Positions 3,208 through 59,138 of a DNA stretch of 64,000 nt are shown piece by piece. Within the stretch, counting starts at the first letter, position 1; every line of letters starts with the position of its first letter. The notes under the pieces were generated by a model. It saw only the letters and a list, made by a program, of their open reading frames with translations, was not told the origin of the DNA and did not search any database. The position numbers and the translations under genes were made by a program. This DNA comes from Thermoanaerobaculia bacterium (GTDB lineage Bacteria; Acidobacteriota; Thermoanaerobaculia; Gp7-AA8): positions 4,598 through 68,597 of the forward strand of contig DATLEY010000053.1 in assembly GCA_035525215.1 (NCBI GenBank), written 5' to 3'.

Positions 3208-3591
3208 GAATGCAGAATGCGGAGACGAGGAGTCGATGACGGCGGCACGCCGCGCGCGCAGCGACGTCATCCTGAGCGTGAGCGAAGGATCTGGGGGGCT
3301 GGGACGCGCGTAACGCGGAAGCAATGCAGGGGGCTGAGGCTTAGGTTCGCTCGACGTTTTTAGGAGAATCCCTTTTCGCTCTCATTGGTGAAAGCGAATA
3401 CCAGACTTCTCGCCCTGCACCGTCACTCGTTACCCGCGTCCCGCCCACCCAGATCCTTCACACCCTCTCAGGATGACGCCGTTCTCTTTCTACATTCGTC
3501 ATTCTGCATTCTGCATTCAGCTTTTGACTCTCGTTCTCTTTCTACATTCGTCATTCTGCATTCTGCATCCTGCATTCTGCTTTTGACTCTC
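3208..3591. repeat. composite intergenic palindromic repeat
   Basis: Outer heptamer arms are gaatgcagaatgc (3208-3220) versus cattctgcattctgcattc (from ~3498). They enclose a ~218-bp inverted repeat (3263-3480, gtcatcctgagcg.gagcgaaggatctgg arms). Two tandem ~52-59-bp units follow (3481-3532, 3533-3591), each ending in cttttgactctc. Confidence 0.8.
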
Positions 3592-3606
3592 GTCCTCTTT
3601 CACCCT

Positions 3607-6540
3607 TCACCCTTCCCTCCCGCTCTCCGGCCCCAGCGTGCCGGTGGCCACACGATTTCTTCCCGCGTGCTTGGCGCGGTAGAGAAGCTCGTCGGCGAGT
3701 GCGACGAGCTGAGAGGGCTCCAGATCGGGGTATGGGCGGACCGACGCCACGCCTGCACTGATCGTGACCACGTCGGCAACGGTCGAGAATTCATGCGGAC
3801 ATGCTTCACGCTCGACACCGGCGCGAATCGCTTCGCCGATCCGCTTCACGTGCGACGGTTCAGCGCCGTAGAGGATGACCGCGAATTCTTCGCCGCCGTA
3901 GCGAGCCACCAGATCTCCGGGCCGGTGGCCCGTGCGCTGAAGCAGGGAAGCGATTTGCCGCAGGCATTCGTCTCCCGGCTGGTGGCCGTAGGCGTCGTTG
4001 TAGGGCTTGAACTGATCGACGTCGATGAGGATGAGCGAGAGCCAGGAGCGGTCGCGAATGGCCCGCCTCCATTCGCGATCGAGAGCCTCGTCGAAGTGCC
4101 GGCGATTCGCCAGTCCGGTCAGCGAATCGACCCGGGTCTGCTCCTCGAGGAGTGCGTTGGCCGCCGCGAGCTCGCTGGTCCGCTGCTCGACGAGTTGGAG
4201 GAGCTCCCGTTCCCGCCGCCGCGTCCTTCGCGCGCGCAACAATACGAAGAGGACGACGGCGCCGATCAGCACCCCCAGGAGCAGCAGCCAGAAACGCCTC
4301 GTCTCCCACTGATGCGGTTCAATGGCGAGCGCAATGGTGCTCCCGGCGTTCCATGGTCCTCCCCGCTGGGCCGCCGCAACTTGAAACTGGTAACGGCCAG
4401 GTGGAAGATTCGTGTACCGGGCGATCCGACTGCTGCCCACCTCGATCCACTCCCGCTCCAGGGGCTCGAGGCGGTAGCGGAAGAGCAGCCGCTCCGGAGC
4501 GGACATCATCAGGCCGGTGTAATGAATCTCGAGGCGCTCGGCTCCCGGGGCGAGGTCGAGGCGGCTGGCCAGCCTCACCGGCTCACCATTGACCACGACT
4601 TCCTCGATTACCGTGCGCGGCGCCACGGTGCTCGATCGAATCTCGTCCGGATCGAGAAGAGCCACCCCCTCGAGAGTCGGAAAGACCAGACGCCCATCCC
4701 GGGTGCGCCAACCGGCCGGCTGGGTCGCGCCGTTGCACTCGGGGCTGCGCATTCCGTCCGATTTTCCGAGTCCCACGGCGGAGACGCGAAGACTCTCCCC
4801 CCGCGCGAACGAGTCGAGCTCATCGCGGGAAGCGGCGAAGATTCCCTTGTTTCCCGACATCCAGAGCCGTCCGTCGTCATCTTCGAGCACCTGATAAACG
4901 ACGTCGTCGACGAGCCCCGCGCGAACGTCGATTGCCGCGAATCGCCCCTCTTCGTAGCGGATCAATCCGCCACCGCCCGAGCCCACCCAGAGAACTCCGC
5001 GATCATCCTCGTGAATGGAGTAGATCTTTGCGGTCGGCAGCCCCGATTCCACGCCGATCCGCGAGACGTTGCCATTCAGAATCCGGATCAGTCCCTCCCC
5101 GTAAGCGACGATCCAGATCGAACCATCACGTGCCTCAATCACGTTGAATACCGCCGCGTCCGTGACACCCTCCGCCGCTCCGAGCCTTTCGATTCTGCCG
5201 TCTTTGAGCCGGGCCAATCCAGCGCGCGTCCCGATCCAGAGCGTGCCCGCGCGGTCGACGTAGAGCGCGCGAATGATCCTGCTCGGCAGACCGTCGGCGG
5301 TCCGGATCACGCGACGCACGCGTCCTCCCGTCATCTCGACCAGACCATCTCTCGTCCCCAGCCAGATGGTTCCAGCGGGATGCTCTGCGATCGCGAGCAC
5401 CACGTCATCGGGAAGTCCATCGTCCATCTGGAACGACCGCGCATCGTTGCCGCGGATGCGGACCGCTCCATTGCCGAACGTGCCGACCCAGAGATCGCCG
5501 CTGCTCGACTCCATCACCGTCCGGGCGATTCCGATCGTTGCCGGCCCCACGTGATTGAGAGACCGGACAGCGGCTCTTCTCATCCTGGACAGTCCGCCGC
5601 CGCCCGTGCCAACCCACAGATTTCCTTCGCGGTCCTCGAAGACCGAGCGGACCGTGTCGATGGGGAGATCACTGTCCGCCGCGCGATAGCTCTCGAACCG
5701 ATCCCCGCTCTTGCGGGTCAGGCCCCCGTAGGTGCCGATCCACAACACCCCCTCACGGTCGACGCGAAGCGCCCGGACGACGTTGCTCGCCAGTCCGTCG
5801 TCGGCGGTGAACGTCGTGAACACGCCGTCCGCAAAGCGTGAAAGGCCATTCTCGGTGCCGATCCAGAGCGCGCCGCTCGGATCGCTGGTCAGCGCGCGGA
5901 TCGGACTGCCCGGCAGCCCTTCGCCGGAATCGAAAAGAGCAACCTCCTCCCCCGCGATGCGGATCAGCTGTCCCGCTTCCGCACCCGCCCAGATCGTTCC
6001 CGCAGCGTCGCGATGAACGGAAAAGATCGGCTCACCCGGAGGAATCAGCGGGGAGGTGAAGGGGTTGATCCTCCCCTCCTCGACCCTGGCGAGCCCTCCC
6101 TGCGTCGCAATCCAGATCGTTCCATCGGATCCCTTGGCGAAGGCCCACACCGAGTCCGAGGGCGAGCCCGGCACCGGCCGGAACGCGCCGTTCTCGAAAA
6201 CGCCGACACCGGCCGACCCCGTCCCGATCCAGACCCGCGACCCTTCGCAGAAGAGCGCTTGAATCAGGTTGTCGCCGAGTACCGGCGTACTGGTCCGGTC
6301 GAAAACCGTGAAGCGGGCCCCATCGAAGCGAGCGAACCCCCCCATCGTCGCGATCCAGAGATATCCATCCTCGCCCTGACCGACCTCTTGAACAGAGCTC
6401 TGAGGCAGCCCGTGGGATTCATCCCACGTCTCGAACGTGAAGGGGGTGACGCCCGAAGGGGGGTCGCCCGCCACCCCCTGCGCAAGCAGGGTGAAGCCGA
6501 TCCACGCCACGATCCAATAAGGCGTACGGCGGTTACACAT
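3607..6540 (-). CDS. sensor diguanylate cyclase: periplasmic two-component-regulator propeller/Y_Y_Y region, TM segment, GGDEF domain
   Basis: The N-terminal ~700 aa are repetitive WIGT/WVGT propeller-type blades. A TM segment (FWLLLLGVLIGAVVLFVLL) and coiled coil follow. The C-terminal GGDEF domain has RYGGEEFAVIL. Confidence 0.85.
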   Translation of the reverse strand: MCNRRTPYWIVAWIGFTLLAQGVAGDPPSGVTPFTFETWDESHGLPQSSVQEVGQGEDGYLWIATMGGFARFDGARFTVFDRTSTPVLGDNLIQALFCEGSRVWIGTGSAGVGVFENGAFRPVPGSPSDSVWAFAKGSDGTIWIATQGGLARVEEGRINPFTSPLIPPGEPIFSVHRDAAGTIWAGAEAGQLIRIAGEEVALFDSGEGLPGSPIRALTSDPSGALWIGTENGLSRFADGVFTTFTADDGLASNVVRALRVDREGVLWIGTYGGLTRKSGDRFESYRAADSDLPIDTVRSVFEDREGNLWVGTGGGGLSRMRRAAVRSLNHVGPATIGIARTVMESSSGDLWVGTFGNGAVRIRGNDARSFQMDDGLPDDVVLAIAEHPAGTIWLGTRDGLVEMTGGRVRRVIRTADGLPSRIIRALYVDRAGTLWIGTRAGLARLKDGRIERLGAAEGVTDAAVFNVIEARDGSIWIVAYGEGLIRILNGNVSRIGVESGLPTAKIYSIHEDDRGVLWVGSGGGGLIRYEEGRFAAIDVRAGLVDDVVYQVLEDDDGRLWMSGNKGIFAASRDELDSFARGESLRVSAVGLGKSDGMRSPECNGATQPAGWRTRDGRLVFPTLEGVALLDPDEIRSSTVAPRTVIEEVVVNGEPVRLASRLDLAPGAERLEIHYTGLMMSAPERLLFRYRLEPLEREWIEVGSSRIARYTNLPPGRYQFQVAAAQRGGPWNAGSTIALAIEPHQWETRRFWLLLLGVLIGAVVLFVLLRARRTRRRERELLQLVEQRTSELAAANALLEEQTRVDSLTGLANRRHFDEALDREWRRAIRDRSWLSLILIDVDQFKPYNDAYGHQPGDECLRQIASLLQRTGHRPGDLVARYGGEEFAVILYGAEPSHVKRIGEAIRAGVEREACPHEFSTVADVVTISAGVASVRPYPDLEPSQLVALADELLYRAKHAGRNRVATGTLGPESGREG

Positions 6541-11210: not shown

Positions 11211-11253
11211 CGCTCGCGACGTTCCCCCACTTTGAATGACCTGCCCTTCCCGC
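11211..11253. repeat. solo copy of an element end (cgctcgcgacgttcccccacttTgaatgacc tgcccttcccgc)
   Basis: Near-identical to 30391-30428. The terminal ctgaatgacc is shared with the TIR of the 230-bp element. Confidence 0.5.
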
Positions 11254-17950: not shown

Positions 17951-17992
17951 GGCAATGCGACATTCTATGCTTCTGCGAGCTATTCAGAAAAA

Positions 17993-18154
17993 AACGAACG
18001 CAGAACGATGAACGATGAATTTAGAAGAGAGTCAAAAGCAGCCGTTCAGCGCGAGCGAAGCCTGGACAGAACATCAAGAAACGAGCAGAACGGGTCCGCC
18101 GTTTCTAAATTCATCGTTCTGCGTTCTGCGTTCTGCGTTCGCCTTTGACTCTCT
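17993..18154. repeat. heptamer-arm palindromic repeat (TTCTGCG family), locus B
   Basis: Left arm: aacgaacgcagaacgatgaacgatgaatttagaa + gagagtcaaaag. Right arm: ttctaaattcatcgttctgcgttctgcgttctgcgttcg + cctttgactctct. Confidence 0.8.
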
Positions 18155-18184: not shown

Positions 18185-19027
18185 TCAAGCCGGCTTCGAC
18201 ACGCTCCGCTCCCAGGCCATCGAAGCGATCTTCCACCCCTTTTCCGTCCGGACCAGCTGGACGCTATTCGTTCCCCGCCCGACGATCTCCTCCCCATGGC
18301 GGGCGATGTAGTCGCTCGCGACGTGAGCCACGACCCCGAGCTCCTCGATCCGGCAAGAAACCTCTTCTTCCGTGAAGCTCGACCACCCGGTTTGCTGCAT
18401 CAGGGATTCGTAGGAACTACGGAAGGCCTCCAGATCCATCACCTGCACTCCCTCGCTGGAAACCCGGATCAACCGCGCGTCCGGAAGAAATGCCTCGGCG
18501 TCGGCGATCCAGTCGGGCTCTTCTCCCTCTCGGAAGGAGATCGACGCGTAGCTTGCGCGGACCACGCTGCCGATGTCGTTCGAATCGAAGTGGACCCGCC
18601 GTTTCCCTTTCGGGTCGAGGGCATGCCGGATCTCGCTCTCGGCGCCGGCGTCCCTGCCACACGCGGCCGCTCCCGCCCACCCTTCAGCGGAGAAGATGAA
18701 TGGTCCCAGTTTCGGCTCGCTCGCCTTCTTCGGCAGCAGATGAATGTGAAAATGACGGTCGACATCGCCGACCGCCGCGAGATAGAACTTTTCGAGATCG
18801 AGAATCGGCGCTGCGGCGGCGGCGAGGCGTCGCGCCATCGCAATGACGCCGCGCGCTTCATCATCCGTCACATCAGAGAACGTGGGGCGATGCTCGCGCA
18901 CGGCCACGACGAGATGGCCCTTCCTGATGGAATCACGCGCGAAGAACGCAATCGCCGAATCGTTCGCCGCGATGATCTCTCTCTCCGTGAGCGCGCAGAT
19001 ACTGCAGACCGCATTGCCTGTCGTCAT
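18185..19027 (-). CDS. HIT family hydrolase fused to an NTF2/SnoaL-like C-terminal domain
   Basis: Histidine triad (HFHIHLLP) at ~aa 100. The C-terminal ~130 aa has an alpha+beta cone-like pattern ending WKIASMAW. The NTF2-like assignment is tentative. Confidence 0.7.
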   Translation of the reverse strand: MTTGNAVCSICALTEREIIAANDSAIAFFARDSIRKGHLVVAVREHRPTFSDVTDDEARGVIAMARRLAAAAAPILDLEKFYLAAVGDVDRHFHIHLLPKKASEPKLGPFIFSAEGWAGAAACGRDAGAESEIRHALDPKGKRRVHFDSNDIGSVVRASYASISFREGEEPDWIADAEAFLPDARLIRVSSEGVQVMDLEAFRSSYESLMQQTGWSSFTEEEVSCRIEELGVVAHVASDYIARHGEEIVGRGTNSVQLVRTEKGWKIASMAWERSVSKPA

Positions 19028-19146: not shown

Positions 19147-19665
19147 ATGGGAGAGGGCGTGCTGTTCCAGATCTGCCACGAGGGCGACCTCACCGTCGAA
19201 GTCTCCGATGCGCTGCGACGGATCGGCGCCGAGCCGAATTTCGATCAGAGCTGGAAACTGCAGCTCGACCAGTCCCGCCCGGCCGGCGTCCTCGTTCGAT
19301 ATCTCCGGATGATGATCGGACCGCATGCGCGACTTCTCGCCGCGCCGCTTCAGCGAACCCGCCGCCGCGACCTGATCCTGGTCAGGCACAGCATGACCTC
19401 GGGAGCCGATTATCGCGAGCTTCACGACGCGCTCGAGCGGCTGGGATGGGTGCTGGAGCTTCCGTTCGAATCGACCTTCATCGTGGAAAGCGACGAATGG
19501 ACGGACGCGCGACGGCTGGGAGAGGCTCTCGTCGAGCTCTGCCCGGATGAGTCTCTGATGGTGACCGGGATCGGGGGCGACTTCGCCTGGTGCGTCGGAT
19601 CGGTCGGCCCGATGATGCTCACCGGCGACGCCGTCGCCGGCCTCTCCCGCGTCCGCACGTTTTAA
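19147..19665 (+). CDS. hypothetical protein
   Basis: ATG at 19147 lies 6 nt after AGGAGG. No motif recognised. Confidence 0.45.
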   Translation: MGEGVLFQICHEGDLTVEVSDALRRIGAEPNFDQSWKLQLDQSRPAGVLVRYLRMMIGPHARLLAAPLQRTRRRDLILVRHSMTSGADYRELHDALERLGWVLELPFESTFIVESDEWTDARRLGEALVELCPDESLMVTGIGGDFAWCVGSVGPMMLTGDAVAGLSRVRTF

Positions 19666-19891
19666 AAGACGAACGCAGAACGATGAACGATGAATTTAGA
19701 AACGGGGACCGCGGTCTGCTCGTCTTTGAAGTTGTTGCTTTTGACTCTCTTCTAAATTCATCGTTCTGCGTTCTGCGTTCTGCGTTCGTCTTTTGCTTTC
19801 CCCCCAGATAGTCGCTGATCTTCATCAACGTGCCTCTGACTCTCTTCTAAATTCATCGTTCTGCGTTCTGCGTTCTGCGTTCGTCTTTGAC
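19664..19891. repeat. heptamer-arm repeat (TTCTGCG family), locus C
   Basis: One inverted arm (19664-19702) is near-identical to 17993-18026. Two direct units follow: ttgactctcttctaaattcatcgttctgcgttctgcgttctgcgttcgtct at 19738-19796 and 19834-19891. Confidence 0.85.
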
Positions 19892-19924
19892 TTCCCTCGC
19901 TCGTCCACCCTCTTCCCTTCTAGA

Positions 19925-24912: not shown

Positions 24913-26526
24913 ATGAGATCTCCCCGGTCGCAGTCGATCGCCATTCTCCTCATCCTCCTCACCGCCTCTCTGGGAGGCGGATGGCTCGGCGGAAGGCTGC
25001 TGGCCCAGCAGAAGCAACCATCCCTCGATCAGCAGATGCGCGAGTACGCGGACGTGCTCGGGGCGCTCGAGGAATGGGCGCCGCACGAAGTCGGAACGGG
25101 CGACCTGATCTACGGCTCGATCCATGGGCTGGTGCGAGCGCTCGATCCTCATTCTCAGTTCTTCGCCCCGCGTGACTACACGGAGGTCCGGGACAAGCAC
25201 GCCGGCAGTTATTACGGCGTGGGGCTTCTCGTCTCTCAGCGGGAGAACCGAGTGGTCGTGATCACTCCGATGGAGGGAGGCCCGGCGGGCCGCCTCGGCG
25301 TGAGGCCGGGCGACGTCATCGTCGAGGTCGACGCCGTTTCCACGGAAAACATCACCTACGACAAAGTGACCGACATGCTGAGAGGACCCAAAGGGACTCC
25401 GGTCGAGGTCAAGATACGCCGCGAGGGTTTCGTCGAGCCTCTCCATTTCACCATTCGCCGTGAAGCGATCACCACGAAGGCCGTGAACGCCGCCTTTCTC
25501 ATCGAGCCCGGTGTGGCCTACATCCGCGTCAACGATTTCACGAATACGACCGAGCGGGAGTTCGACGCCGCAATCGACCGACTGAGCGAAACCGAGCTGC
25601 GCGGAATCATCATCGACCTCCGGGGAAATGGCGGCGGCGTCCTCGATGCAGCGATCGCCATCGCCGATCGCTTCCTGGAAAAAGGGCAGATGGTCGCGTA
25701 CACCCAGGGGAATGCTCCGGGATCGAACGAACAGTATCTCGCTCCCGGAACGAAAGCCCGGCTCGAGACTCCGCTCGTGGTTCTCGTGAATCAGGGAAGC
25801 GCCTCGGCCTCGGAGATCGTGGCCGGAGCGGTTCAGGATCATGACCGCGGCCTCGTAGTCGGCGAGATCACCTGGGGAAAAGGGCTGGTCCAGAGTGTCT
25901 ACAACCTAGGTCACGGAGCGGGCATCGCGCTGACGACCGCTCGGTACTACACACCGAGCGGCAGGAACATTCAGCGCGACTACTCCTCGCTCTACGACTA
26001 CTACACGCACGAGATGCCGGGAGAGGCGCCTGCGGACATGATGTTCACGACCGCTACCGGCAGAACCGTTTATGGCGGGGGCGGCATCCGCCCCGACATC
26101 CGGGTCGCGCTGGAACAGAAGCCGCGAGTCGTCCAGGTCATCGAAGCGAGGGCGATCGCCTTCGACCTTGCGGTGAAAGCGCACTCGCGCGATCCGCTTC
26201 TCTTCGATCGTCCCATCGAGTCCCACCTACTCGCCGAGTTCGAGCAGGCCGTTCTGCAGCGTTCCATTCTCCCCGAGGAGCGGGTCCGCGCGGCCTTCGC
26301 CGATGCCGAGGTCCGTCCCCATTTCGAACGACTGTTGAAGTCCGAGCTGGTGGCGGTGGCCCAGGGATACGAAAACTCCTATCCGTTCAGGCTTCGAGGC
26401 GACTCGCAGATCGAGCACGCGATCGCTGCGCTGCCCGATGCGCGGAAACTGGCGGCACGCGCATTCGAGAAACGTCAGGACGAGCTGGCTCGCTCCGACG
26501 AAAAGCGGTCTCAGTCCCCTTCGTGA
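24913..26526 (+). CDS. ctpA: S41 family carboxyl-terminal processing peptidase with PDZ domain
   Basis: PDZ segment (GGPAGRLGVRPGDVIVEVD). S41 core (DLRGNGGG...NQGSASASEI...GEITWGKG). Confidence 0.85.
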   Translation: MRSPRSQSIAILLILLTASLGGGWLGGRLLAQQKQPSLDQQMREYADVLGALEEWAPHEVGTGDLIYGSIHGLVRALDPHSQFFAPRDYTEVRDKHAGSYYGVGLLVSQRENRVVVITPMEGGPAGRLGVRPGDVIVEVDAVSTENITYDKVTDMLRGPKGTPVEVKIRREGFVEPLHFTIRREAITTKAVNAAFLIEPGVAYIRVNDFTNTTEREFDAAIDRLSETELRGIIIDLRGNGGGVLDAAIAIADRFLEKGQMVAYTQGNAPGSNEQYLAPGTKARLETPLVVLVNQGSASASEIVAGAVQDHDRGLVVGEITWGKGLVQSVYNLGHGAGIALTTARYYTPSGRNIQRDYSSLYDYYTHEMPGEAPADMMFTTATGRTVYGGGGIRPDIRVALEQKPRVVQVIEARAIAFDLAVKAHSRDPLLFDRPIESHLLAEFEQAVLQRSILPEERVRAAFADAEVRPHFERLLKSELVAVAQGYENSYPFRLRGDSQIEHAIAALPDARKLAARAFEKRQDELARSDEKRSQSPS

Positions 26527-26539
26527 CTGGCCACGCGTC

Positions 26540-26585
26540 GGCGCCACAGAAGCCAAAGTGGCGGGCGGCGTCTCGCCACCCAGCC
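26540..26585. repeat. GC-hairpin repeat, single copy
   Basis: ggcgccacagaagccaaagtGGCGGGCGGCGtctCGCCaCCCagcc matches the units at 46768-46947. Confidence 0.55.
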
Positions 26586-26694
26586 CTGACGACGATGATC
26601 GCTCTTAGAATCAGCGCGCTGCGCGCGCCAACCGGGTGGGGATGAACCGCTCCCGGCGATCCATTCGCATCGATTTTGCTTTATCCTCGCGGCG

Positions 26695-29997: not shown

Positions 29998-30051
29998 CGG
30001 CGCACAAGGGTGCAGCGACACTCCCGTTTGGCGCAACCGCGTGCGGGTGGT

Positions 30052-30111
30052 GGTCATTCAGAGGCCGTATGCGCCGGCCGAGCAGAGTATGAAAGTCAGC
30101 GGGAAGGGCGG
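30052..30111. repeat. extra TIR-like end upstream of copy A
   Basis: ggtcattcagaggccg is repeated at 30052. The segment ends gcgggaagggcgg, which matches the reverse complement of 11241-11253. Confidence 0.5.
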
Positions 30112-30341
30112 GGTCATTCAGAGGCCGCACGGGAGGACGAGGTTGAGAGACGATTGGTCTCGCGGCCGAAGAATCTCCGAATGCGAAGGCCGTCATCGGG
30201 TTCTTATGCCGGTGCAATCGCATCCTACGAACGCGCCTGGACGTGCATGAGAACCCGACAGCGATCCTCGCGGCTGAGATTCTTCGGCCGCGTCACCACT
30301 TCGCATTCTGCCCGGCTGGCGCGTGCGGCCTCTGAATGACC
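30112..30341. mobile_element. ~230-bp MITE-like palindromic element, copy A
   Basis: Perfect 20-bp TIRs (ggtcattcagaggccgcacg / cgtgcggcctctgaatgacc). The interior is nested inverted repeats (cgcggccgaagaatctc / gagattcttcggccgcg; cgggttcttatgc / gcatgagaacccg). A second copy lies at 37291-37521. Confidence 0.65.
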
Positions 30342-30390: not shown

Positions 30391-30428
30391 CGCTCGCGAC
30401 GTTCCCCCACTCTGAATGACCCGCCCTT
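30391..30428. repeat. solo element end (cgctcgcgacgttcccccactctgaatgacc)
   Basis: Near-identical to 11211-11253. With 30052 it forms an outer inverted pair around copy A. Confidence 0.5.
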
Positions 30429-37290: not shown

Positions 37291-37521
37291 GGTCATTCAG
37301 AGTGGCGCACGGGAGGACGAGGTTGAGAGACGATTGGTCTCGCGGCCGAAGAATCTCAGAATGCGCAGGCCGTCATCGGGTTCTTGTGCCGGTGCACTCG
37401 CATCGTACGAACGCGTCTGGACGTGTATAAGAACCCGACAGTGATCACCGCGGCTGAGATCCTTCGGCCGCGACGCCAGCTCATCTTCTGCCCGGCTGGC
37501 GCTTGCGGCCTCTGAATGACC
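37291..37521. mobile_element. ~230-bp MITE-like palindromic element, copy B
   Basis: Same orientation as copy A and roughly nine-tenths identical by eye over the full length. Ends ggtcattcagag...cggcctctgaatgacc. Confidence 0.65.
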
Positions 37522-37636
37522 ACCTCCCTCTGCCTTCCGCCTCCGAATCACCTCCCCCCACCGCCCGGAGGCCGGCGGAACCCCACTCCCGGTTCGTGGA
37601 AATTCGGATCCCTCCCCTCGCCGTTTCGGAGGCTTC

Positions 37637-42220: not shown

Positions 42221-42243
42221 TACCGGCCGGAGGCCGGCGGTAC
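42221..42243. repeat. dispersed REP hairpin (TTAC subtype)
   Basis: taCCGGCCggaGGCCGGcggtac lies between convergent genes, preceded by gcgcttcgcgcgct as at 49405. Confidence 0.6.
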
Positions 42244-46768: not shown

Positions 46769-46947
46769 CAGAGTGGCGGGCGTCGTCTCGCCGCCCAGCC
46801 CGTTTCAACGAAAATCTTTGCGGGACCGGCTGCAAGCCGGCGCCACAGAGAGAAAAGTGGCGGGCGGCGTCTCGCCGCCCAGCCGTTTTCATAAGATCTT
46901 CGCTGCGCGCTACCCGCGCCAGCCGGCTGCAAGCCAGCGCCACAGAG
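46768..46947. repeat. two tandem ~85-95-bp GC-hairpin units between convergent ndk and rlpA
   Basis: Each unit reads acagag..tGGCGGGCGgCGtctCGCCGCCCagcc ... CCGGCtgcaaGCCGGcgcc. A third acagagg start follows. A related copy lies at 26540-26585. Confidence 0.7.
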
Positions 46948-46948
46948 G

Positions 46949-47854
46949 CTAAGAGTCGGGCAGGACGATTCCCGGATACCCCGCGGCGGCCAGGCGGCTT
47001 GCCGCTTCATCAGCGGCTTCGCGAGTCGGAAAAGGTCCGACCCTGACGCGGTGCAGCTCGCCTCGAAGCTGGAGGTAAACCCGCGGCTCGATTGCGGCCA
47101 CGCGCACTCGCAGGACATCGGCATTCGCCTCGACCTGGAAAGCGCCGAGCTGCACGACGAATCGCGAGGGAACCGGCGTCTCTTCCGGCACCGGCTGCGA
47201 TGATCGGGGAGGCGCCGCAGGCGGAGTGCGCGTTTCGACGATTCTTCCATCCTCGGTCACCGTCTGGATCGTGACCCCGTCCGCTCCAACCTGCCGTCTC
47301 ACCGGTTCCCCGGCGCGTTCCTCGATCACGACCACGTTGTCGACGACGGCACCGGAATCCGCGGAAGATCCGCCCGGAAGGGGAAAGGCTACGGAGGGAG
47401 CTCTCTCGGGAGCGCTGATGATTTCGTCCGGCGGAGTGATCTTCACGACGTAAGGGCGCGGCGGTTCTCTCTCACCCCTGCCGATCGCCACGATCCGCGC
47501 CTGAACCTGTCCGATGCCAGGCTCGACCAGCCCGATCTCACGTGCCGCGCCGTAGGAAAGATCGAGGATCCGGTTTCCGACGAAGGGCCCCCGATCGTTG
47601 ATCCGTACCGTGACCTTTCGTCCGTTCGACAGATAAGTCACATCGAGGATCGTTCCGAAGGGGAGCGTCTGATGTGCAGCGGTCAGCTTCATCGGATCGA
47701 AAATCTCGCCGTTGGCCGTGGTCCGGCCCGCGAATTCCTCGCCGTACCAGCTGGCCATTCCGGTCAGCTCATCGGATTGCTGCGGGATTCTGGTTGCGAC
47801 ACACGCGGGAAGAAGCACCGCGACGAAAAAAAGAAGGACGAACGTCTTTCTCAT
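46949..47854 (-). CDS. rlpA: septal ring lytic transglycosylase RlpA family lipoprotein with C-terminal SPOR domain
   Basis: Lipobox (LLPAC). DPBB motif (ASWYGEEFAGRTTANGE.FD....AAH.TLPFGT...V......GR.V.VRINDRGPF). C-terminal SPOR-like segment (FVVQLGAF). Confidence 0.85.
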   Translation of the reverse strand: MRKTFVLLFFVAVLLPACVATRIPQQSDELTGMASWYGEEFAGRTTANGEIFDPMKLTAAHQTLPFGTILDVTYLSNGRKVTVRINDRGPFVGNRILDLSYGAAREIGLVEPGIGQVQARIVAIGRGEREPPRPYVVKITPPDEIISAPERAPSVAFPLPGGSSADSGAVVDNVVVIEERAGEPVRRQVGADGVTIQTVTEDGRIVETRTPPAAPPRSSQPVPEETPVPSRFVVQLGAFQVEANADVLRVRVAAIEPRVYLQLRGELHRVRVGPFPTREAADEAASRLAAAGYPGIVLPDS

Positions 47855-49302: not shown

Positions 49303-49534
49303 GGGGGGAGGGAGGAGGGTAGACGAGCGAAAGAGGCAGGGATCAGGGTAGACGAGCGAGGGAAGAGGGAGAAGCACGGCTGCGGATTGATTCTTCGGTT
49401 CTCCAGCGCTTCGCGCCTTACCGGCCAGAGCCCGGCGGTACAGTGCATCCCGCCGAGATCTGCTTCTCCCTGAATCCCTCGCTCTTCTACCCTCTTCCCT
49501 GGTTTTGTTGCTCCTCTACCCTCCTCCCTGCCCC
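49303..49534. repeat. ~74-bp imperfect inverted arms enclosing a REP hairpin
   Basis: Left arm 49303-49377 (gggaggagggtagacgag...agggtagacgagcgagggaagagggagaagcac) matches the reverse complement of 49461-49534 at about four-fifths by eye. The loop contains taccggccagagcccggcggtac (49419-49441). Confidence 0.65.
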
Positions 49535-54590: not shown

Positions 54591-55271
54591 TCACGCAGCG
54601 GGTCGTCGCACCACGGCAACCTGGCCATTTCCGAGGATCGTGCCGGTGCGGTCGGGAGCAATGGCCACGGCGGTGGAGACCGGAATGCCGAGACCGATCG
54701 TCACTCGTGGCGCGGACATCATCCGTTTGAGAGTCTCGCTCGCATCCGGCCGATAGTTCGTCTCGACCGCAGCGCCCGGAACCCATCCGAAGCCGGGCAC
54801 CACATTCCCCTGGCGCTGAGCGTCCGCTGCGTACTCGCCGAATGCCGCCGCGCCGGCCCCGATTCCCGCGACGACCGCCCCGCCGGCGCTCGCTTCACGG
54901 ATTGCTTCCTCCGTGGCGGTCCCGCGAAGCGTATCCGCGACGAGGTTCGTGATTCCGCCACCGAGGTAAACCATCCCGGCGCTGCGGATCGCTTCGAGAT
55001 TTCTGCCCCGTCTCAGGTCTCTCGATCGGTAGACCGGAACGTTGGCCACTTCCAGCTCAGGATCGAGCTTCCGGAAGTACTCACCAAGATGGCGCGCGTA
55101 ATCAGGAGAGCCGGACGCCGTCGGAATGAACGCGATCCGGCGATTACCCGCGGGCATTTTCTCGAGAAGGAAGCGATCGATCTCGTCGGTGTCGCCGAAG
55201 GAGAACTCTCCTCCCCCAATCAGCACGAGCCAGCCGGAGCCCGGCTCTCCTGGAAGAACGAGCGTCTTCAT
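54591..55271 (-). CDS. S51 peptidase / cyanophycinase-like (type 1 glutamine amidotransferase-like) protein
   Basis: LVLIGGGEF....IAFIPTAS...MVYLGGG.T pattern. The start at 55271 (MKTLVLPG) excludes the repeat-derived extension. Confidence 0.65.
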   Translation of the reverse strand: MKTLVLPGEPGSGWLVLIGGGEFSFGDTDEIDRFLLEKMPAGNRRIAFIPTASGSPDYARHLGEYFRKLDPELEVANVPVYRSRDLRRGRNLEAIRSAGMVYLGGGITNLVADTLRGTATEEAIREASAGGAVVAGIGAGAAAFGEYAADAQRQGNVVPGFGWVPGAAVETNYRPDASETLKRMMSAPRVTIGLGIPVSTAVAIAPDRTGTILGNGQVAVVRRPAA

Positions 55272-55283
55272 GCGGTGGGGAGT

Positions 55284-55810
55284 GTACCGAAGTCCACTCT
55301 CCGGCCTGGCCACCGTACCGCCGGCGTCCCGCCGGTCGCCACGACTGCGCGGGCTCACGCGGATCCACTGTACCGCCGGCGTCCCGCCGGTCGCCATGAC
55401 CGCGCAGGCTCACGCGGATTCACTGTACCGCCGGCGTCCCGCCGGTCGCCATGACCCCGCAGGCTCACGCGGATTCACTGTACCGCCGGCGTCCCGCCGG
55501 TCGCCATGACTACGCGGGCTCACGCGGATCCACTGTACCGCCGGCGTCCCGCCGGTCGCCACGACTGCGCAGGCTCACGCGGATCCACTGTACCGCCGGC
55601 GTCCCGCCGGTCGCCACGACTGCGCGGGCTCACGCGGATTCACCGTACCGCCGGCGTCCCGCCGGTCGCCACGACCGCGCAGGCTCACGCGGATCCACCG
55701 TACCGCCGGCGTCCCGCCGGTCGCCACGACTACGCGGGCTCACGCGGATTCACCGTACCGCCGGCGTCCCGCCGGTCGCCACGACTGCGCGGGCTCACGC
55801 GGATTCACTC
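55284..55810. repeat. tandem array of nine 55-bp REP-type units plus one degenerate leading copy
   Basis: gtaccgCCGGCGtccCGCCGGtcgcc recurs at 55315, 55370, 55425, 55480, 55535, 55590, 55645, 55700 and 55755 (exact 55-nt period). Units are near-identical across their whole length, differing at only ~6 positions. Confidence 0.95.
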
Positions 55811-56447
55811 ACCTGTTCTTGCCGCGCAGAGCGATCACCGCAGACTCCCACTCCGGATCGAACGATACGAACGGCCAGTCGATCAGGCCGCCTTTTCTAG
55901 GATTGTTCCGGATGTACCGAATCACATGCTCGAGCTGCACCGGCGTGCGGATGACCCGGTCGAAGTAATCGCGCTGCCAGAAGCGCCCGTGGACGCCGAG
56001 CAGCCTGTTGCATTCTTTGGCGGTGTACGACTTCCAGCTGTGCACGAGATGCTCCAGATCATCGCCTCGCTCGAGGTAGAACAAGGCATGAACGTGATTG
56101 GGCATGACACACCAGCTGATCATGACGTGTCCGTTCCCGTTGAAAAATCGAAGGGCATCGAAAACCACGCCTGCAAGCCGTGGATCGCGGAGACTGCAGC
56201 GCCCGCGATGGCGGTCCAGCTCGATCTCACATTCCCGAACGAAGCGTCGCCGATAGTCTTCGGCCGAACTCGCATCCTTCCTGAGGCGACGTTCGATGTC
56301 TTCGATCAACCCGAACGGCAGCGAATCGAATTCACAAAAGGTGACGAAATAGATTCCCTGGTCGACGATGAAGTGAGGTTTGTTGTGGCGGATTCGGATG
56401 CGGCAATTGGATGGAGTGAAAAAACTGAGAGGTTCGTCTCGGCGCAT
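55809..56447 (-). CDS. REP-associated tyrosine transposase (RAYT; IS200/IS605-like Y1 HUH transposase)
   Basis: 212 aa from MRRDEPLSFF. HUH motif (VMPNHVHALF). Catalytic Tyr motif (VIRYIRNNP). Flanked by inverted REP arrays. Confidence 0.85.
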   Translation of the reverse strand: MRRDEPLSFFTPSNCRIRIRHNKPHFIVDQGIYFVTFCEFDSLPFGLIEDIERRLRKDASSAEDYRRRFVRECEIELDRHRGRCSLRDPRLAGVVFDALRFFNGNGHVMISWCVMPNHVHALFYLERGDDLEHLVHSWKSYTAKECNRLLGVHGRFWQRDYFDRVIRTPVQLEHVIRYIRNNPRKGGLIDWPFVSFDPEWESAVIALRGKNR

Positions 56448-56530
56448 GATGATCGGGGCCGAAACGAAGAGACAGGAGGGTTGGCGGGTGGGCAGGAAAA
56501 GGGTACCTCGGCGATGAAGAGGCGACAAGA

Positions 56531-56630
56531 GCGACCGGCCGGAGGCCGGCGGTACTCTGGTCTCGCGTGAGCCTGCTCGTTCCCCGCGACCGGCCGGAGG
56601 CCGGCGGTACTCTGGTCTCGCGTCAGCCTG
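56531..56630. repeat. two 55-bp REP units, inverted relative to the 55315-55810 array
   Basis: gcgaCCGGCCggaGGCCGGcggtac tctggtctcgcgtgagcc... starts at 56531 and 56586. The units abut the sucD stop codon (56633). Confidence 0.9.
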
Positions 56631-56632
56631 GG

Positions 56633-57532
56633 TTATCGCTTCTTCCAGACCTGCTCGAGCCGGGAGGCCATGTCCGCGGGAGAAACGACGACGTGGATGC
56701 CCGCTTCTTCGAGCGCGTCCATCTTCTCTTTCGCCGTGCCCTTGCCGCCGCTGATGATCGCTCCGGCGTGTCCCATCCGACGTCCGGGAGGGGCGGTCTG
56801 ACCCGCGATGAACGCAACCACCGGTTTCTTCACGTTCGCTTTCACGAATGTGGCGGCATCTTCCTCGGCCGTACCGCCGATCTCGCCGATCATGATCATC
56901 GCCTCGGTCGCCGGATCGGCTTCGAACGCTTCGAGACAATCGACGAAGTTGGTCCCGGGAAGAGGATCTCCGCCGATTCCGACCGCGGTCGACTGGCCGA
57001 TTCCTCGCTTCGACAGCTGCCCGACCGCTTCGTAGGTCAGCGTGCCGGAGCGCGACACGATGCCGATCAGACCTTCCCGATGGATGTGCCCCGGCATGAT
57101 CCCGATCTTCGCCTTTCCGGGCGTCATGATCCCCGGGCAGTTGGGACCGATCAGACGGGAGCGTTTCGCTTTCTCCCGTCCGGCGTTCGCTTTCGCCAGC
57201 AGGTCATGCGCCTTCAGCATGTCGTTGACCGGGATTCCCTCGGTGATGCAGACAATCAGCTCGATCCCGGCGTCGGCCGCCTCCATGATCGCGTCCGCGG
57301 CAAACGGCGGAGGGACGAAGATCAGCGCGCAGTTCGCTCCTTCCTTCTCACGCGCCTCGCTCACCGTATTGAAGACGGCGAAACCTTCGTGAGTCGTGCC
57401 GCCCTTGCCGGGTGTCACGCCGCCGACCACTTTCGTTCCGTACTCGCGGCACTGAATCGCGTGGAAGGTTCCTTCGCGGCCGGTAATCCCCGACACGATG
57501 ACTTTCGTTTTCTCGTCAGCCCAGATCGCCAT
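56633..57532 (-). CDS. sucD: succinate--CoA ligase subunit alpha
   Basis: [14 protein letters not shown]..., MGHAGAII (active His) and full-length pattern. Confidence 0.95.
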
Positions 57533-57557: not shown

Positions 57558-58730
57558 TCATGAAGCGCGCGAGCGTTTCGCCGCGGCGACGACTTTCTCG
57601 GCGGCGTCGCTCATCCCGTCCGCGGTGATCAGGTCGAGTCCCGATTTCTGCAGGATCTCTTTCCCCAGCTCCACGTTCGTTCCTTCCAGCCGGACGACCA
57701 CGGGCACAGGAAGACCGACCTCCCGCGAAGCCTGAACCACTCCTTCCGCGATGCGGTCGCAGCGCATGATCCCGCCGAAGATGTTGATCAGAATCGCTTC
57801 CACATGCTCGTCGCTGAGGATGATGCGGAAGGCATTCTTGACCTGCTCGGCACTCGCGCCGCCCCCGACGTCGAGGAAGTTCGCGGGCTCGCCGCCCGCG
57901 TGCTTGATGATGTCCATGGTCGCCATCGCCAGACCGGCGCCGTTGACCATGCAGCCGACGTTTCCGTCCAGCTTGATGTAGTTGAGTCCGAACTTCGACG
58001 CCTCGACCTCCAGCGGATCTTCCTCGGCGAGATCGCGCATCTCGAGGACATCTTTGTGGCGGAACATCGCGTTGTCGTCGAAGGTCATCTTCGCGTCGAG
58101 CGCCAGGACGTTCTCTTCCTTCGTGATGAGCAGCGGGTTGATCTCGGCCAGTGAAGCATCCGTCTCGATGTAGGCGCGGACCAGCTTCTGAATGAAGTCG
58201 ACGGCGCGCTTGAATGCGGCGCCCTCAAGGCCGAGGGCGTAGGCGATCTGGCGCGCCTGGAACGGCTGGATTCCGAGGACCCCGTCGATCGGCTCCCTAT
58301 GAATTGCGTCGGGATCGCGCTCGGCGACTTCCTCGATCTCCATTCCTCCCTGCGACGAGGCCATGACCACGGGTTTGCCGAGGCGCCGGTCGAGGGTGAT
58401 GCCGAGGTAGAGCTCCTTGTCGATGTTCAGCGCTTCCTCGATGAGGACTTTTCCGACCACCCGACCTTCAGGACCGGTCTGATGGGTGATGAGGGTCATC
58501 CCGATGATCTTCGACGCGAGCTCCGCGGCTTCGTCGGGATTGGAAGCCAGTTTGACTCCGCCCCCCTTGCCGCGACCTCCGGCGTGAATCTGAGCCTTGA
58601 CCACGACCCGGCCACCCAGCGCTTTCGCCGCTTCGCGCGCCTGCCGCGGCGTGTCGACAACCTCTCCTCGGGGCACGGCAACGCCATATTTCCGGAGAAT
58701 CTCTTTGCCCTGATACTCGTGAACTTTCAT
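57558..58730 (-). CDS. sucC: ADP-forming succinate--CoA ligase subunit beta
   Basis: [17 protein letters not shown]..., [18 protein letters not shown] and [10 protein letters not shown]. Confidence 0.95.
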
Positions 58731-58872: not shown

Positions 58873-59113
58873 GAGTTCCCAGTTCTGAGTTCTCAGTTCT
58901 CAGTTGCCGGCGGTTGTCGTAGTGCGACCGGCCGGAGGCCGGCGGTACTTTGGTTTCTCGTGAGCCTGGGCGTTCCTGGCGACCGGCCGGAGGCCGGCGG
59001 TACTTTGGCTTCGAGCCTGCTTGTTCTTGGCGACCGGCCGGAGGCCGGCGGTACTTTGGTTTCGGTCAGCGGTAAATGACAACTCGGAACTCGGAACTCG
59101 GAACTGGGAACTC
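58873..59113. repeat. heptamer inverted arms enclosing three REP units
   Basis: Left arm: gagttcccagttctgagttctcagttctcagttg (58873-58906). Right arm: caactcggaactcggaactcggaactgggaactc (59080-59113). REP units start at 58924, 58979 and 59030. Confidence 0.85.
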
Positions 59114-59138
59114 GCAACTCTTCCTGTACTCTGCGCGA

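Follow-up and report, generated by a model that had tools for sequence, protein, structure and literature searches.

A small gene bracketed by copies of the same 55-nt unit, nine downstream in one orientation and two upstream in the other, raises two questions: whether the gene and its flanks constitute a RAYT with its cognate REPs (a REPtron), and how one flank came to hold so many units. The window analyzed here is the whole 64-kb stretch of Thermoanaerobaculia DNA in which this locus lies. Our preferred reading, to which we assign a probability of roughly 70%, is a REPtron composed of a single-copy, intact RAYT gene and inverted cognate GTAC REPs, in which the array derives from one founder and the RAYT is the most likely catalyst of its growth.

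Identity of the RAYT gene

55809..56447, minus strand: RAYT (TnpA-REP) gene, 212 aa plus TGA stop

The ORF runs from 56447 to 55812, with its stop at 55809-55811, and its 212-aa product contains the MPNHVHAL and RYIRNNP motifs from which a preliminary description of this DNA, made from the sequence alone, had recognized the HUH and catalytic-Tyr signatures of a RAYT. This identification holds: Pfam Y1_Tnp matches at 37.3 bits (cutoff 23), and the top PDB sequence match is E. coli TnpA-REP (4er8; E 2.8e-7), with the H-V-H of the ORF aligned to H-M-H and the Tyr of RYIRNNP aligned to Y115. The accompanying expectation that profile searches would place the ORF in this family was borne out by Y1_Tnp and by the ranking of models, the NCBIfam REP_Tyr_transpos model (NF047646) at 75.7 bits being far ahead of the IS200 model NF033573 at only 21 bits (cutoff 55); it was not borne out at the level of the REP equivalog, whose cutoff of 80 is narrowly missed. 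An AF2 model of the protein (pLDDT 88.5) has 4er8_A as its first Foldseek match (E 3.4e-8), followed by the ISDra2, IS608, and IS200 transposases.

The ORF keeps the residue of each of the 24 columns that are invariant in an alignment of 18 clade sequences, among them MPNHVH and Y179. The Tyr motif has the form YxxxNP, that of class 2 rather than class 1, and the wider signature is NHVH / WQ / YIRNNP, with D and R where E. coli has E100 and H101; these motifs, by which alone the assignment is made, resemble subclass 2.7 of Quentin and colleagues. By sequence and model, the gene is an intact class 2 RAYT/TnpA-REP, a Y1 HUH endonuclease with predicted activity on single-stranded DNA. No paralogue was detected elsewhere in the 64-kb window, and the nearest homologue among 5.8 billion proteins is 47% identical. 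Exact-protein look-ups with RAYT and SucD returned no match, and no second assembly of the locus was found.

The REP unit and its copies in the window

55310..55809, minus strand: head-to-tail REP array of type A, 9 REP hairpins, 8 complete 55-nt units
55315-55337, 55370-55392, 55425-55447, 55480-55502, 55535-55557, minus strand: exact array cores 1-5
55590-55612, 55645-55667, 55700-55722, 55755-55777, minus strand: exact array cores 6-9
56531..56630, plus strand: upstream REP pair of type B (CCGGCC-GGA-GGCCGG), two head-to-tail 55-nt units
56533-56555, 56588-56610, plus strand: exact cores of the upstream pair
58924..59063, plus strand: third array, type B, three units spaced by 55 and 51 nt, cores at 58926, 58981, and 59032
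42221..42243, plus strand: singleton REP, type-B hairpin, tail GGTACAGTG
49419..49441, plus strand: singleton REP, 3 mismatches, left context as in the copy at 42221
37559..37581, plus strand: degenerate REP-like copy and weak member, 3 mismatches, tail GGAAC

With up to 3 mismatches allowed, the 23-nt core GACCGGCSGGASGCCGGCGGTAC is matched 17 times in the window, as compared with 0 in 100 dinucleotide shuffles, and these 17 REP copies occupy six intergenic loci alongside the one RAYT gene. Dispersal of the unit beyond the array and upstream pair, which the preliminary description had proposed to check genome-wide, is shown within these 64 kb by the copies at 58924-59063, 42221, and 49419 and by the degenerate copy at 37559, and further by a second genome (L004), all outside the interval first described. 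Throughout the window the REP travels with a conserved 30-nt tail as a 55-nt unit, present as singletons or short head-to-tail arrays. Two other organizations were considered and rejected: units are direct within each array, with no alternating orientation of the BIME or REPIN kind, and the tail scores below the shuffle mean against an inverted REP, as opposed to the score expected of a decayed REP/iREP doublet.

Each REP is a hairpin with a 6-bp GC stem and a 3-nt GGA/TCC loop, followed by CGGTAC, matching the hairpin and adjacent GGTAC of the preliminary description; the stem reaches 8 bp if one bulged A is allowed, and in energy the hairpins surpass GC-matched shuffles by only about 1.7-2 sd. 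Read on the complementary strand, a 5'-GTAC tag stands at the hairpin foot. This tag is GTAC in 14/14 exact copies, at the canonical tag position, canonical REPs being defined by GT[AG]G. In other genomes an identical hairpin is followed by CGGTAC or CGCTAC, and some sister copies read GTAG there; with both tags borne by one hairpin at one site, GTAC is best taken as a variant of canonical GTAG, as the earlier analogy with that tetranucleotide had it. Two hairpin types are distinguished: the type A stem, CCGGCG...CGCCGG, in 9/9 array units, and the type B stem, CCGGCC...GGCCGG, in 7/7 well-preserved other window copies and in the L004 copies. The two differ by a compensatory double change, a flip of the loop-closing pair.

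The upstream pair has the orientation opposite to that of the array and is placed in the gap separating the RAYT start from the sucD stop (56633-56635). Its last recognizable base, 56630, is 2 nt short of that stop, consistent with the statement that the upstream copies abut it. Seven inverted-repeat pairs (I1-I7) join this pair to the array, with 76-79% complementarity over about 100 nt. Counting exact cores, nine on the minus strand lie downstream of the gene and two on the plus strand lie upstream, so that the reported bracketing in opposite orientations and its 9-versus-2 asymmetry are both real. The Y1_Tnp score above cutoff, the agreement of sequence and fold on 4er8 as best match, the aligned catalytic residues, and the inverted flanking REPs together identify the locus as a RAYT/REP REPtron.

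The same evidence bears on whether the gene could instead be an autonomous IS200/IS605-type insertion sequence whose hairpins are its left and right ends. The Y1 HUH fold and the next-best structural matches (ISDra2, IS608, and IS200 transposases) are what such an element would show; however, the ORF reaches only 21 of the 55 bits needed for the IS200 model and 75.7 bits with the REP model, its flanking hairpins face in opposite orientations instead of sharing a strand, hairpin units also turn up on their own, away from the gene, the window holds no second gene copy, and the Tyr motif is of class 2 rather than class 1. We regard this possibility as extremely improbable.

The third array sits in the divergent intergenic region upstream of sucC; TRF assigns it a period of 51 and 2.6 copies, and it is 85% identical to the RAYT-upstream pair over 103 nt. 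The singleton at 42221 is preceded by a small GCGC-TTC-GCGC hairpin and located between convergent long ORFs, and that at 49419 forms the center of a long purine/pyrimidine inverted repeat (I18). As a separate observation, all five non-array loci are plus-oriented (p about 0.06), the array being opposite to every other window copy, and GC skew on the plus strand is uniformly negative, but weak. The plus orientation is suggestive of strand-specific insertion, which is retained here as a lead only.

Structure and variation of the nine-unit array

The type A unit consists of GCGACCGGCGGGACGCCGGCGGTAC followed by the 30-nt tail. TRF delimits the array at 55310-55809, with period 55, 9.1 copies, 94% matches, and 0% indels, and the nine exact minus-strand cores are spaced by exactly 55 nt throughout. 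The earlier count of nine 55-nt copies is thus correct for hairpins and for spacing and too high for complete units, which number eight. As claimed, the array overlaps the RAYT stop codon: its final aligned base, 55809, is where the complement of that codon begins. At the other end, the proposed start at 55284 could not be substantiated, the stretch 55284-55309 containing no statistically supported REP remnant; more generally, degenerate extra REPs in 55272-55316 and 56448-56532 were not significant (p 0.09 to 0.83).

All eight complete units are distinct, differing pairwise by 1-5 substitutions. The six variable columns fall exclusively in the 30-nt tail and none in the 25-nt REP (hypergeometric p about 0.02), and the hairpin with its GTAC tag (25 nt) is invariant in all nine units. 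No higher-order period of 110 or 165 nt was apparent, identity being 92-95% at every offset. Variants are shared blockwise by neighboring units (GGTAC-G by units 1-3, GTCATG by units 5-7), and all four allele combinations are present at pairs of variable sites, which indicates recombination within the array. A CRISPR array was rejected as an annotation: the 30-nt segments between hairpins are one sequence varying by 1-5 nt rather than unique spacers.

Related loci in other genomes

Another Thermoanaerobaculia genome (L004) contains tandem copies of this 55-nt unit, in which the tail module CGCGTGAGCCTGCGCG and the unit junction are both present; no RAYT lies within 8 kb of them. Scans of genome and metagenome collections with the REP core otherwise returned only single matches in other taxa. 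A scan with a longer REP-plus-tail pattern recovered L004 again, together with two candidates (L087, L088) rejected as chance matches inside coding sequence. The nearest relative (L005), with SucD 82% identical, has no RAYT or REP after sucD.

GC hairpins with 3-nt loops occur within 400 nt of the gene at 63 of 80 homologous RAYT loci, with loops that are overwhelmingly GGA/AGA or their complements; these show an orientation bias, pyrimidine loops upstream (62:30) and purine loops downstream (62:34), that is the same in this locus. At two loci (L089, L092), 2+2 direct hairpins flank the gene, those of one side being inverted with respect to those of the other. Within 800 nt, 17/80 loci have tandem arrays of 2.5 copies or more, 13 of the 17 being one-sided; these arrays reach 7.9 single-hairpin units or 11.5 doublet units, as in the following examples:

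L162: 27 nt x 7.9 and x 4.0
L161: 48 nt x 5.2, identical hairpin
L130: 59 nt x 11.5

Head-to-tail arrays are, then, a recurrent layout in this RAYT clade, which spans Acidobacteriota, Planctomycetota, Verrucomicrobiota, and others and is poorly studied. The preliminary description had considered a long direct array unusual; the frequency of arrays at homologous loci contradicts this, as do published evenly spaced tandem REP arrays and REP/REPIN clusters beside RAYT genes in P. fluorescens SBW25 (PMC3116915) and published singletons reiterated in tandem (PMC3733652).

These comparisons also bear on the possibility that an assembly artefact accounts for some or all of the array, with another true copy number or with strain variants joined by a short-read metagenome assembler. 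The lineage is apparently uncultured, its nearest relative being a MAG with 82% SucD identity; a 500-nt array of 55-nt period is difficult for short reads; and neither the exact-protein look-ups nor the REP-core scans gave a second assembly of the locus. However, all eight full units are distinct, so that long k-mers have unique paths through the array; two further loci of the window, and also a genome independent of it, show the same period and unit junction; and arrays of similar length lie beside homologous genes in long-read assemblies with multi-megabase contigs (e.g., L166, a 4.8-Mb chromosome). An artefact seems quite unlikely.

Origin of the array

A compensatory flip of the loop-closing pair is common to the nine array units and private to them, and the array therefore grew locally from one founder, in keeping with the one-sided local amplification first suggested. 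By what means it grew is less certain. Under the preferred reading, amplification would have proceeded unit by unit from a single founder unit downstream of RAYT, after which the tails would have diverged as hairpin and tag stayed invariant. The most likely catalyst would be RAYT itself, working in cis with DNA in single-stranded form: if it cleaved two neighboring REPs at equivalent positions, strand transfer could then yield gain or loss of exactly one 55-nt period, a scheme modeled on those published for BIME amplification. Cleavage and strand transfer by TnpA-REP can assemble tandem copies (PMC3333891), and a circular basic-module model has been put forward (PMC2817692).

Alternatively, the REPtron may be the same but its array may have grown without RAYT, by replication slippage or unequal homologous recombination between pre-existing head-to-tail units, RAYT having supplied only the first one or two copies. 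Exact 55-nt multiples without indels are the expected product of slippage or unequal crossover, and this account is further favored by the block-shared variants of neighboring units, the presence of all four allele combinations, the existence of short arrays far from any RAYT, and the orientation of the array opposite to all other window copies. On the other hand, no other array in the window is as large as that touching the RAYT stop codon; around the 80 homologous RAYT genes, arrays are about fivefold denser in the inner 800 nt than at 800-2000 nt, a difference confounded by the intergenic fraction of each zone; and slippage alone does not account for an invariant hairpin and tag beside drifting tails. 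Growth without RAYT is a serious contender, with a probability somewhat short of even.

Several observations sit uneasily with the preferred reading. The sequence does not separate RAYT-catalyzed growth from slippage or unequal recombination, and arrays of 2-3 units also occur away from RAYT (upstream of sucC and in L004). The REP equivalog score remains below its cutoff (75.7 versus 80), and the tag is GTAC rather than GT[AG]G. Additionally, supposing that 5'-GTAC marks the active strand and that the lagging-strand template is the G-rich minus strand, the array orientation is expected to be less accessible to the enzyme.

A further and rather doubtful extension is that the replicative unit in this RAYT clade might be a single GTAC/GTAG-tagged hairpin with a defined tail, as opposed to an inverted REPIN doublet, spreading and amplifying head to tail via a one-period single-strand intermediate. 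If so, the nine-unit array, with its clade-typical hairpin, would be the enzyme's cis "nursery", and the hairpin of the dispersed copies would be a derived one with a compensatory change.

Flanking genes and possible host function

54591..55271, minus strand: S51-family peptidase gene (cyanophycinase-like), Pfam Peptidase_S51 65.5 bits
56633-57532, minus strand: sucD
57558-58730, minus strand: sucC (Pfam matches of sucC and sucD: ATP-grasp_2, Ligase_CoA, CoA_binding)

Pfam matches uphold the earlier naming of the S51 peptidase and sucD as neighbors; TIGR02069 matches the peptidase at 51 bits, below cutoff. The sucC-sucD pair is bracketed by type-B REP arrays in one orientation. The S51 start codon lies 38 nt past the array end and 43 nt past the last REP core, and the promoter scan found no sigma-70-like promoter for this gene downstream of the array; read-through into it is therefore probably needed. 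No terminator-like sites were found in 55272-55808 or 56448-56632, array hairpins being followed by CGGTAC without a T-run, and an Rfam scan of the array gave no match.

These results weigh on the proposal that the array is kept mainly for a host function, as a multi-hairpin terminator or insulator or as a 3'-exonuclease barrier between the RAYT and S51 genes. Its position between two co-oriented genes, ending about 40 nt before the S51 start, and the invariance of the hairpin across all nine units would suit such a role, and for E. coli REPs, effects on mRNA decay, termination, and supercoiling have been reported (as cited in PMC3333891 and PMC3733652). Yet the terminator reading suggested in the preliminary description finds no support in the array, which lacks T-runs, terminator-like sites, and Rfam matches; an S51 gene with no sigma-70-like promoter of its own past the array probably requires read-through; one hairpin would be enough for a barrier; and the widely varying size and usual one-sidedness of arrays at homologous loci better fit amplification dynamics. 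Maintenance mainly for the host is, in our estimation, unlikely.

Comparison with known REP systems

The locus is an ordinary REPtron built around a domesticated transposase gene, with one flank grown to nine units, and such arrays beside RAYT genes have been published. The E. coli K-12 REPtron (yafM/TnpA-REP with flanking BIMEs; 4er8; PMC3333891, PMC3479197, PMC8266576) likewise has a Y1 HUH enzyme, a single gene bracketed by inverted cognate hairpin repeats, a 5' tetranucleotide tag at the foot of an imperfect (bulged) palindrome, and tandem local amplification, with variable copy number in E. coli. However, the RAYT here is only about 18-25% identical to E. coli TnpA-REP, is enlarged by a helical insert of ~50 aa, shows a conserved R..LPHW motif in its N-terminal part, and is accompanied by the tag GTAC rather than GTAG and by single head-to-tail REPs with a conserved 30-nt tail rather than REP/iREP doublets.

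Among TnpA-Y1 subclasses (Quentin et al., 2018, PMC6006769), comparison was made with 2.7 and also with 2.4. Subclass 2.7 shares the signature [ND]HVH, WQ, YI[LR][NQ]NP, and its mean length of 213 aa, longer variable N-terminus, and E100->D and H101->R substitutions agree with the RAYT described here, as do its patchy distribution across phyla and its REP-flanked genes. Its REPs, by contrast, are long canonical ones with 5' GT[AG]G, mostly from Cyanobacteria, whereas here the tag is GTAC and the host belongs to Acidobacteriota.

In P. fluorescens SBW25 (Bertels & Rainey, 2011, PMC3116915), higher-order REP/REPIN clusters adjoin each RAYT gene, "evenly spaced" arrays of one REP type are present, arrays can hold up to 12 REPs, and the arrays are ordered tandem repeats that include flanking sequence, features comparable with those of the locus here. 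The predominant and presumed replicative unit there is the inverted doublet (REPIN), unlike here: no inverted doublet of the GTAC family was found at the six window loci or in L004. The head-to-tail layout in this clade contrasts with doublet-centered enterobacterial and pseudomonad models. Also comparable are the clustered GTAG-1 REPs of Thauera sp. MZ1T and other "reiterated singleton" clusters, in which short tagged GC hairpins are repeated in tandem with adjoining sequence and arrays flank operons, as here (Di Nocera et al., 2013, PMC3733652). That GTAG superfamily accepts degenerate tag variants, though GTAC is not listed among them and the phyla are other than that represented here.

The locus adds a clean, well-delimited REPtron from Thermoanaerobaculia, a lineage with REP/RAYT systems hardly described, and its natural variants (GTAC versus GTAG, type A versus type B hairpin, invariant core versus drifting tails) could serve as substrates for RAYT recognition. 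For annotation, such arrays are to be treated as repeat elements, not as CRISPRs, terminators, or coding repeats. IS200/IS605 elements (IS608, ISDra2) share with the RAYT here the catalytic fold and a predicted single-strand hairpin recognition, and their peel-and-paste logic inspired the one-period circle model above; the gene here differs in that it does not move together with its ends as one unit, in the inverted orientation of those ends, and in a score below the IS200 cutoff.

The transposase gene and its flanking repeats

All genes in this region lie on the minus strand, in the order sucC, sucD, RAYT and an S51 (cyanophycinase-like) peptidase gene. The RAYT ORF and the repeats in the window are as follows:

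56447 to 55812, stop codon 55809-55811, minus strand: RAYT ORF, 212 aa, with MPNHVHAL and RYIRNNP
55315 to 55777, minus strand: array cores, nine exact copies at 55-nt spacing
56533 and 56588, plus strand: upstream-pair cores, two exact copies
58924-59063: three further units upstream of sucC, spacing 55 and 51
42221 and 49419: singleton REPs
37559: degenerate REP copy

Profile and structure searches bear out the recognition of this locus, in the preliminary description, as a REPtron. The ORF matches Pfam Y1_Tnp at 37.3 bits (cutoff 23), scores slightly below the cutoff of the NCBIfam REP-associated tyrosine transposase equivalog (75.7 vs. 80 bits), and reaches just 21 bits against a cutoff of 55 for the IS200 equivalog. 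Among PDB sequences only 4er8, the REP-hairpin complex of E. coli TnpA-REP, gives a significant match (E 2.8e-7); the alignment places H-V-H opposite H-M-H and the RYIRNNP tyrosine opposite Y115, in agreement with the HUH and catalytic motifs first read from the sequence. Foldseek with an AlphaFold2 model (18-sequence alignment; pLDDT 88.5, pTM 0.77) also returns 4er8_A first (E 3.4e-8), with the transposases of ISDra2, IS200, and IS608 next. More than 1000 homologues were found, the closest 47% identical and many annotated as RayT; there is no paralogue elsewhere in the 64-kb window. Aligned with 17 homologues, the protein shares with all of them the HUH block, W158-Q, D164, R168, Y179, and N183-P184, and the presence of every clade-invariant residue shows an intact enzyme. 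In its motif signature (NHVH / WQ / YIRNNP), its length, and the D/R residues aligned with E. coli E100/H101, the protein fits subclass 2.7 as defined by Quentin et al. (2018; PMC6006769), with 2.4 as the alternative, an assignment made by motif and not by phylogeny.

Structure and variation of the array

With ≤3 mismatches allowed, the 23-nt core GACCGGCSGGASGCCGGCGGTAC is matched 17 times in the 64-kb window and not once in 100 dinucleotide-preserving shuffles. Tandem Repeats Finder recovers an array at 55310-55809 (period 55, 9.1 copies, 94% matches, zero indels); with the nine and two exact cores, this upholds the described perfectly phased, 9-versus-2 arrangement, with the longer run past the RAYT 3' end. 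Its final aligned base is the first base of the RAYT stop codon's complement, and the upstream pair stops 2 nt short of the sucD stop, so that the reported overlap and abutment both stand.

Read with its tag 5', the REP is 5'-GTAC-CG-CCGGCG-TCC-CGCCGG-(T)-CG, with a 3-nt loop and a stem of 6 perfect bp, or 8 bp with a single bulged base. Other genomes carry the identical hairpin followed by CGGTAC or CGCTAC, i.e., 5'-GTAC or 5'-GTAG; this makes the tag, GTAC, a variant of canonical GTAG, and the positional analogy previously drawn for GGTAC is correct. Hairpin energies are ~1.7-2 sd better than those of GC-matched shuffles, no more, and the predicted structure rests on conservation and compensation rather than on energy. 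A 30-nt tail containing CGCGTGAGCCYGC follows each REP. The tail was tested as a decayed inverted REP and rejected as such; the units are thus true head-to-tail singletons, not BIME/REPIN doublets.

The stem reads CCGGCG/CGCCGG throughout the nine-unit array, whereas all other well-preserved copies, both those in the window and those of L004, a related Thermoanaerobaculia MAG, read CCGGCC/GGCCGG; the two differ by a compensatory flip at the loop-closing pair. Because this flip is private to all nine units, it argues for one founder and not for nine insertions, and for local amplification, which had been suggested for the asymmetric array; the array is of single-founder origin and was amplified in exact unit steps. 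Its hairpin version is the clade-typical one (e.g., comparison loci L089, L092, L109, L161, L166, and L173). The eight complete units are all distinct, 1-5 substitutions apart, and all six variable columns fall within the tail, the 25-nt REP having none (p ~0.02); constraint, or homogenisation, acts on hairpin and tag. Neighbouring units share variants block-wise and site pairs show all four allele combinations, a pattern that indicates exchange between units within the array, where no higher-order period was found. The eight distinct units and independent occurrences of the 55-nt period argue against a gross assembly artefact.

Tandem arrays across the RAYT clade

GC hairpins with a 3-nt loop occur ≤400 nt away at 63 of 80 surveyed genomic loci encoding RAYT homologues, the loops being almost exclusively GGA/AGA or their complements. 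On the upstream side most loops are pyrimidine (62:30) and on the downstream side most are purine (62:34), as in the window locus. This clade-wide association shows the repeats to be of the RAYT's cognate type. Comparison of sequences across genomes indicates that the hairpin type is common to several phyla, together with the RAYT clade. Exact copies of the 15-nt hairpin CCGGCG-GGA-CGCCGG, followed by CGGTAC or CGCTAC, occur as singletons and inverted doublets on Planctomycetota and other metagenomic contigs (L001 3159-3218; L085 3190-3253; L086, several positions).

Tandem arrays of at least 2.5 copies lie within 800 nt at 17/80 loci and are one-sided in 13 of these.

Examples of tandem arrays at comparison loci
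L162: single-hairpin, head-to-tail, 27 nt x 7.9 downstream and x 4.0 upstream
L161: single-hairpin, head-to-tail, 48 nt x 5.2, array cut by contig end, hairpin identical
L124: single-hairpin, head-to-tail, 30 nt x 4.8
L173: single-hairpin, head-to-tail, 42 nt x 4.4
L166: single-hairpin, head-to-tail, 31 nt x 3.9 and x 3.0
L130: doublet unit, 59 nt x 11.5

The nine-unit array is near the top of the clade range, and its unit is the longest of the single-hairpin kind. Di Nocera et al. (2013; PMC3733652) describe singletons that are tandemly reiterated, and note that in most genomes head-to-tail dimers are under-represented. In SBW25, one REP type can recur in tandem at even spacing, some arrays contain 12 REPs, and each RAYT gene is adjoined by higher-order clusters (Bertels & Rainey, 2011; PMC3116915), and tandem amplification with copy number varying by locus and strain is documented (Ton-Hoang et al., PMC3333891). 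The array is a member of a recurrent pattern in the RAYT clade and in published REP biology; the view that a long direct array is unusual holds only against the E. coli/Pseudomonas textbook picture. In an Acidobacteriota MAG (L119, 879-3587), Tandem Repeats Finder reports a 15-copy array of 179-nt period that runs across the match to the RAYT homologue; this locus may be repeat-invaded or mis-assembled.

Growth of the array

TnpA-REP strand transfer is able to assemble tandem copies (Ton-Hoang et al., PMC3333891). On a model drawn from PMC2817692 and PMC3333891, RAYT would work preferentially in cis on single-stranded DNA, cutting neighbouring units at equivalent positions and then joining the ends, and each such event would gain or lose one 55-nt period. 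Replication slippage or unequal recombination, which would yield identical phasing, is only slightly less likely than this RAYT-catalysed route. GC skew on the plus strand is negative in all 15 intervals, and at all five non-array loci the 5'-GTAC strand is the G-rich minus strand, presumably the lagging-strand template; only the nine-unit array is oriented the other way. This bias is suggestive and not significant (p ~0.06), and the skew and the array's lone orientation count against a simple RAYT-driven picture.

Dispersed copies and transcription

The 55-nt unit extends beyond the RAYT neighbourhood, to the sucC-upstream trio, 42221, 49419, and 37559. L004 has three head-to-tail 55-nt units with the same tail module and unit junction, which makes the unit a family property and not a local accident; no RAYT lies within 8 kb of them.

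Of the five dispersed REP loci, two lie in loops of larger palindromes, which could reflect insertion into single-stranded loops. The sucC-upstream trio is exactly central in an inverted repeat of complementary heptamer tandems (58874-58905, AGTTCTC x 4.6; 59081-59120, AACTCGG x 5.7) and thus occupies the apical loop of a large potential cruciform. The REP at 49419 is central in a long purine-rich/pyrimidine-rich inverted repeat (49304-49377 and 49461-49534; arms 60-75 nt, 83% complementary). A 54-nt inverted repeat at 3262-3315 / 3428-3481, also 83% complementary, has a loop of 112 nt, equal in size to that of the palindrome around 49419, with no recognised REP in it.

No T-run, terminator-like site, sigma-70-like promoter, or Rfam family was found in or around the array, and the proposed multi-hairpin terminator is accordingly not supported. 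A role in mRNA stability or topology has been proposed for E. coli REPs. The S51 gene starts ~40 nt beyond the array (43 nt past the last hairpin core); no promoter of its own was detected, so read-through from upstream is likely. RAYT is probably expressed via read-through from sucCD across both upstream hairpins, an arrangement proposed for REPtrons in general (PMC3733652).

Other repeats in the window

A second REP-like family (46772-46952 and 26522-26592) alternates two hairpin types in opposite orientation, 5'-GTGG-CGGGCGGCG-TCT-CGCCGCCC and ACCGGCTGCAAGCCGG-CGCCAC, the latter GTGG-tagged on the opposite strand. It forms a BIME-like cluster of four hairpins, with a related copy 20 kb off and no cognate RAYT in the window. 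An AT-richer family (3474-3615, 17989-18154, 19664-19896) combines heptamer runs of TTCTGCA, CGTTCTG, and GAACGAT with the motif TTCTAAATTCATCG; its inverted copies (45 nt, 96% complementary) enclose 1.7 kb of sequence with a HIT-motif ORF (18185-19027, minus strand) and one more ORF. Further repeats comprise a dispersed direct pair 7.2 kb apart (30126-30341 / 37306-37521; 216 nt, 91% identity), a dispersed 38-nt pair (11211-11248 / 30391-30428; 95%), and an inverted 48-nt pair (30045-30092 / 37481-37528).
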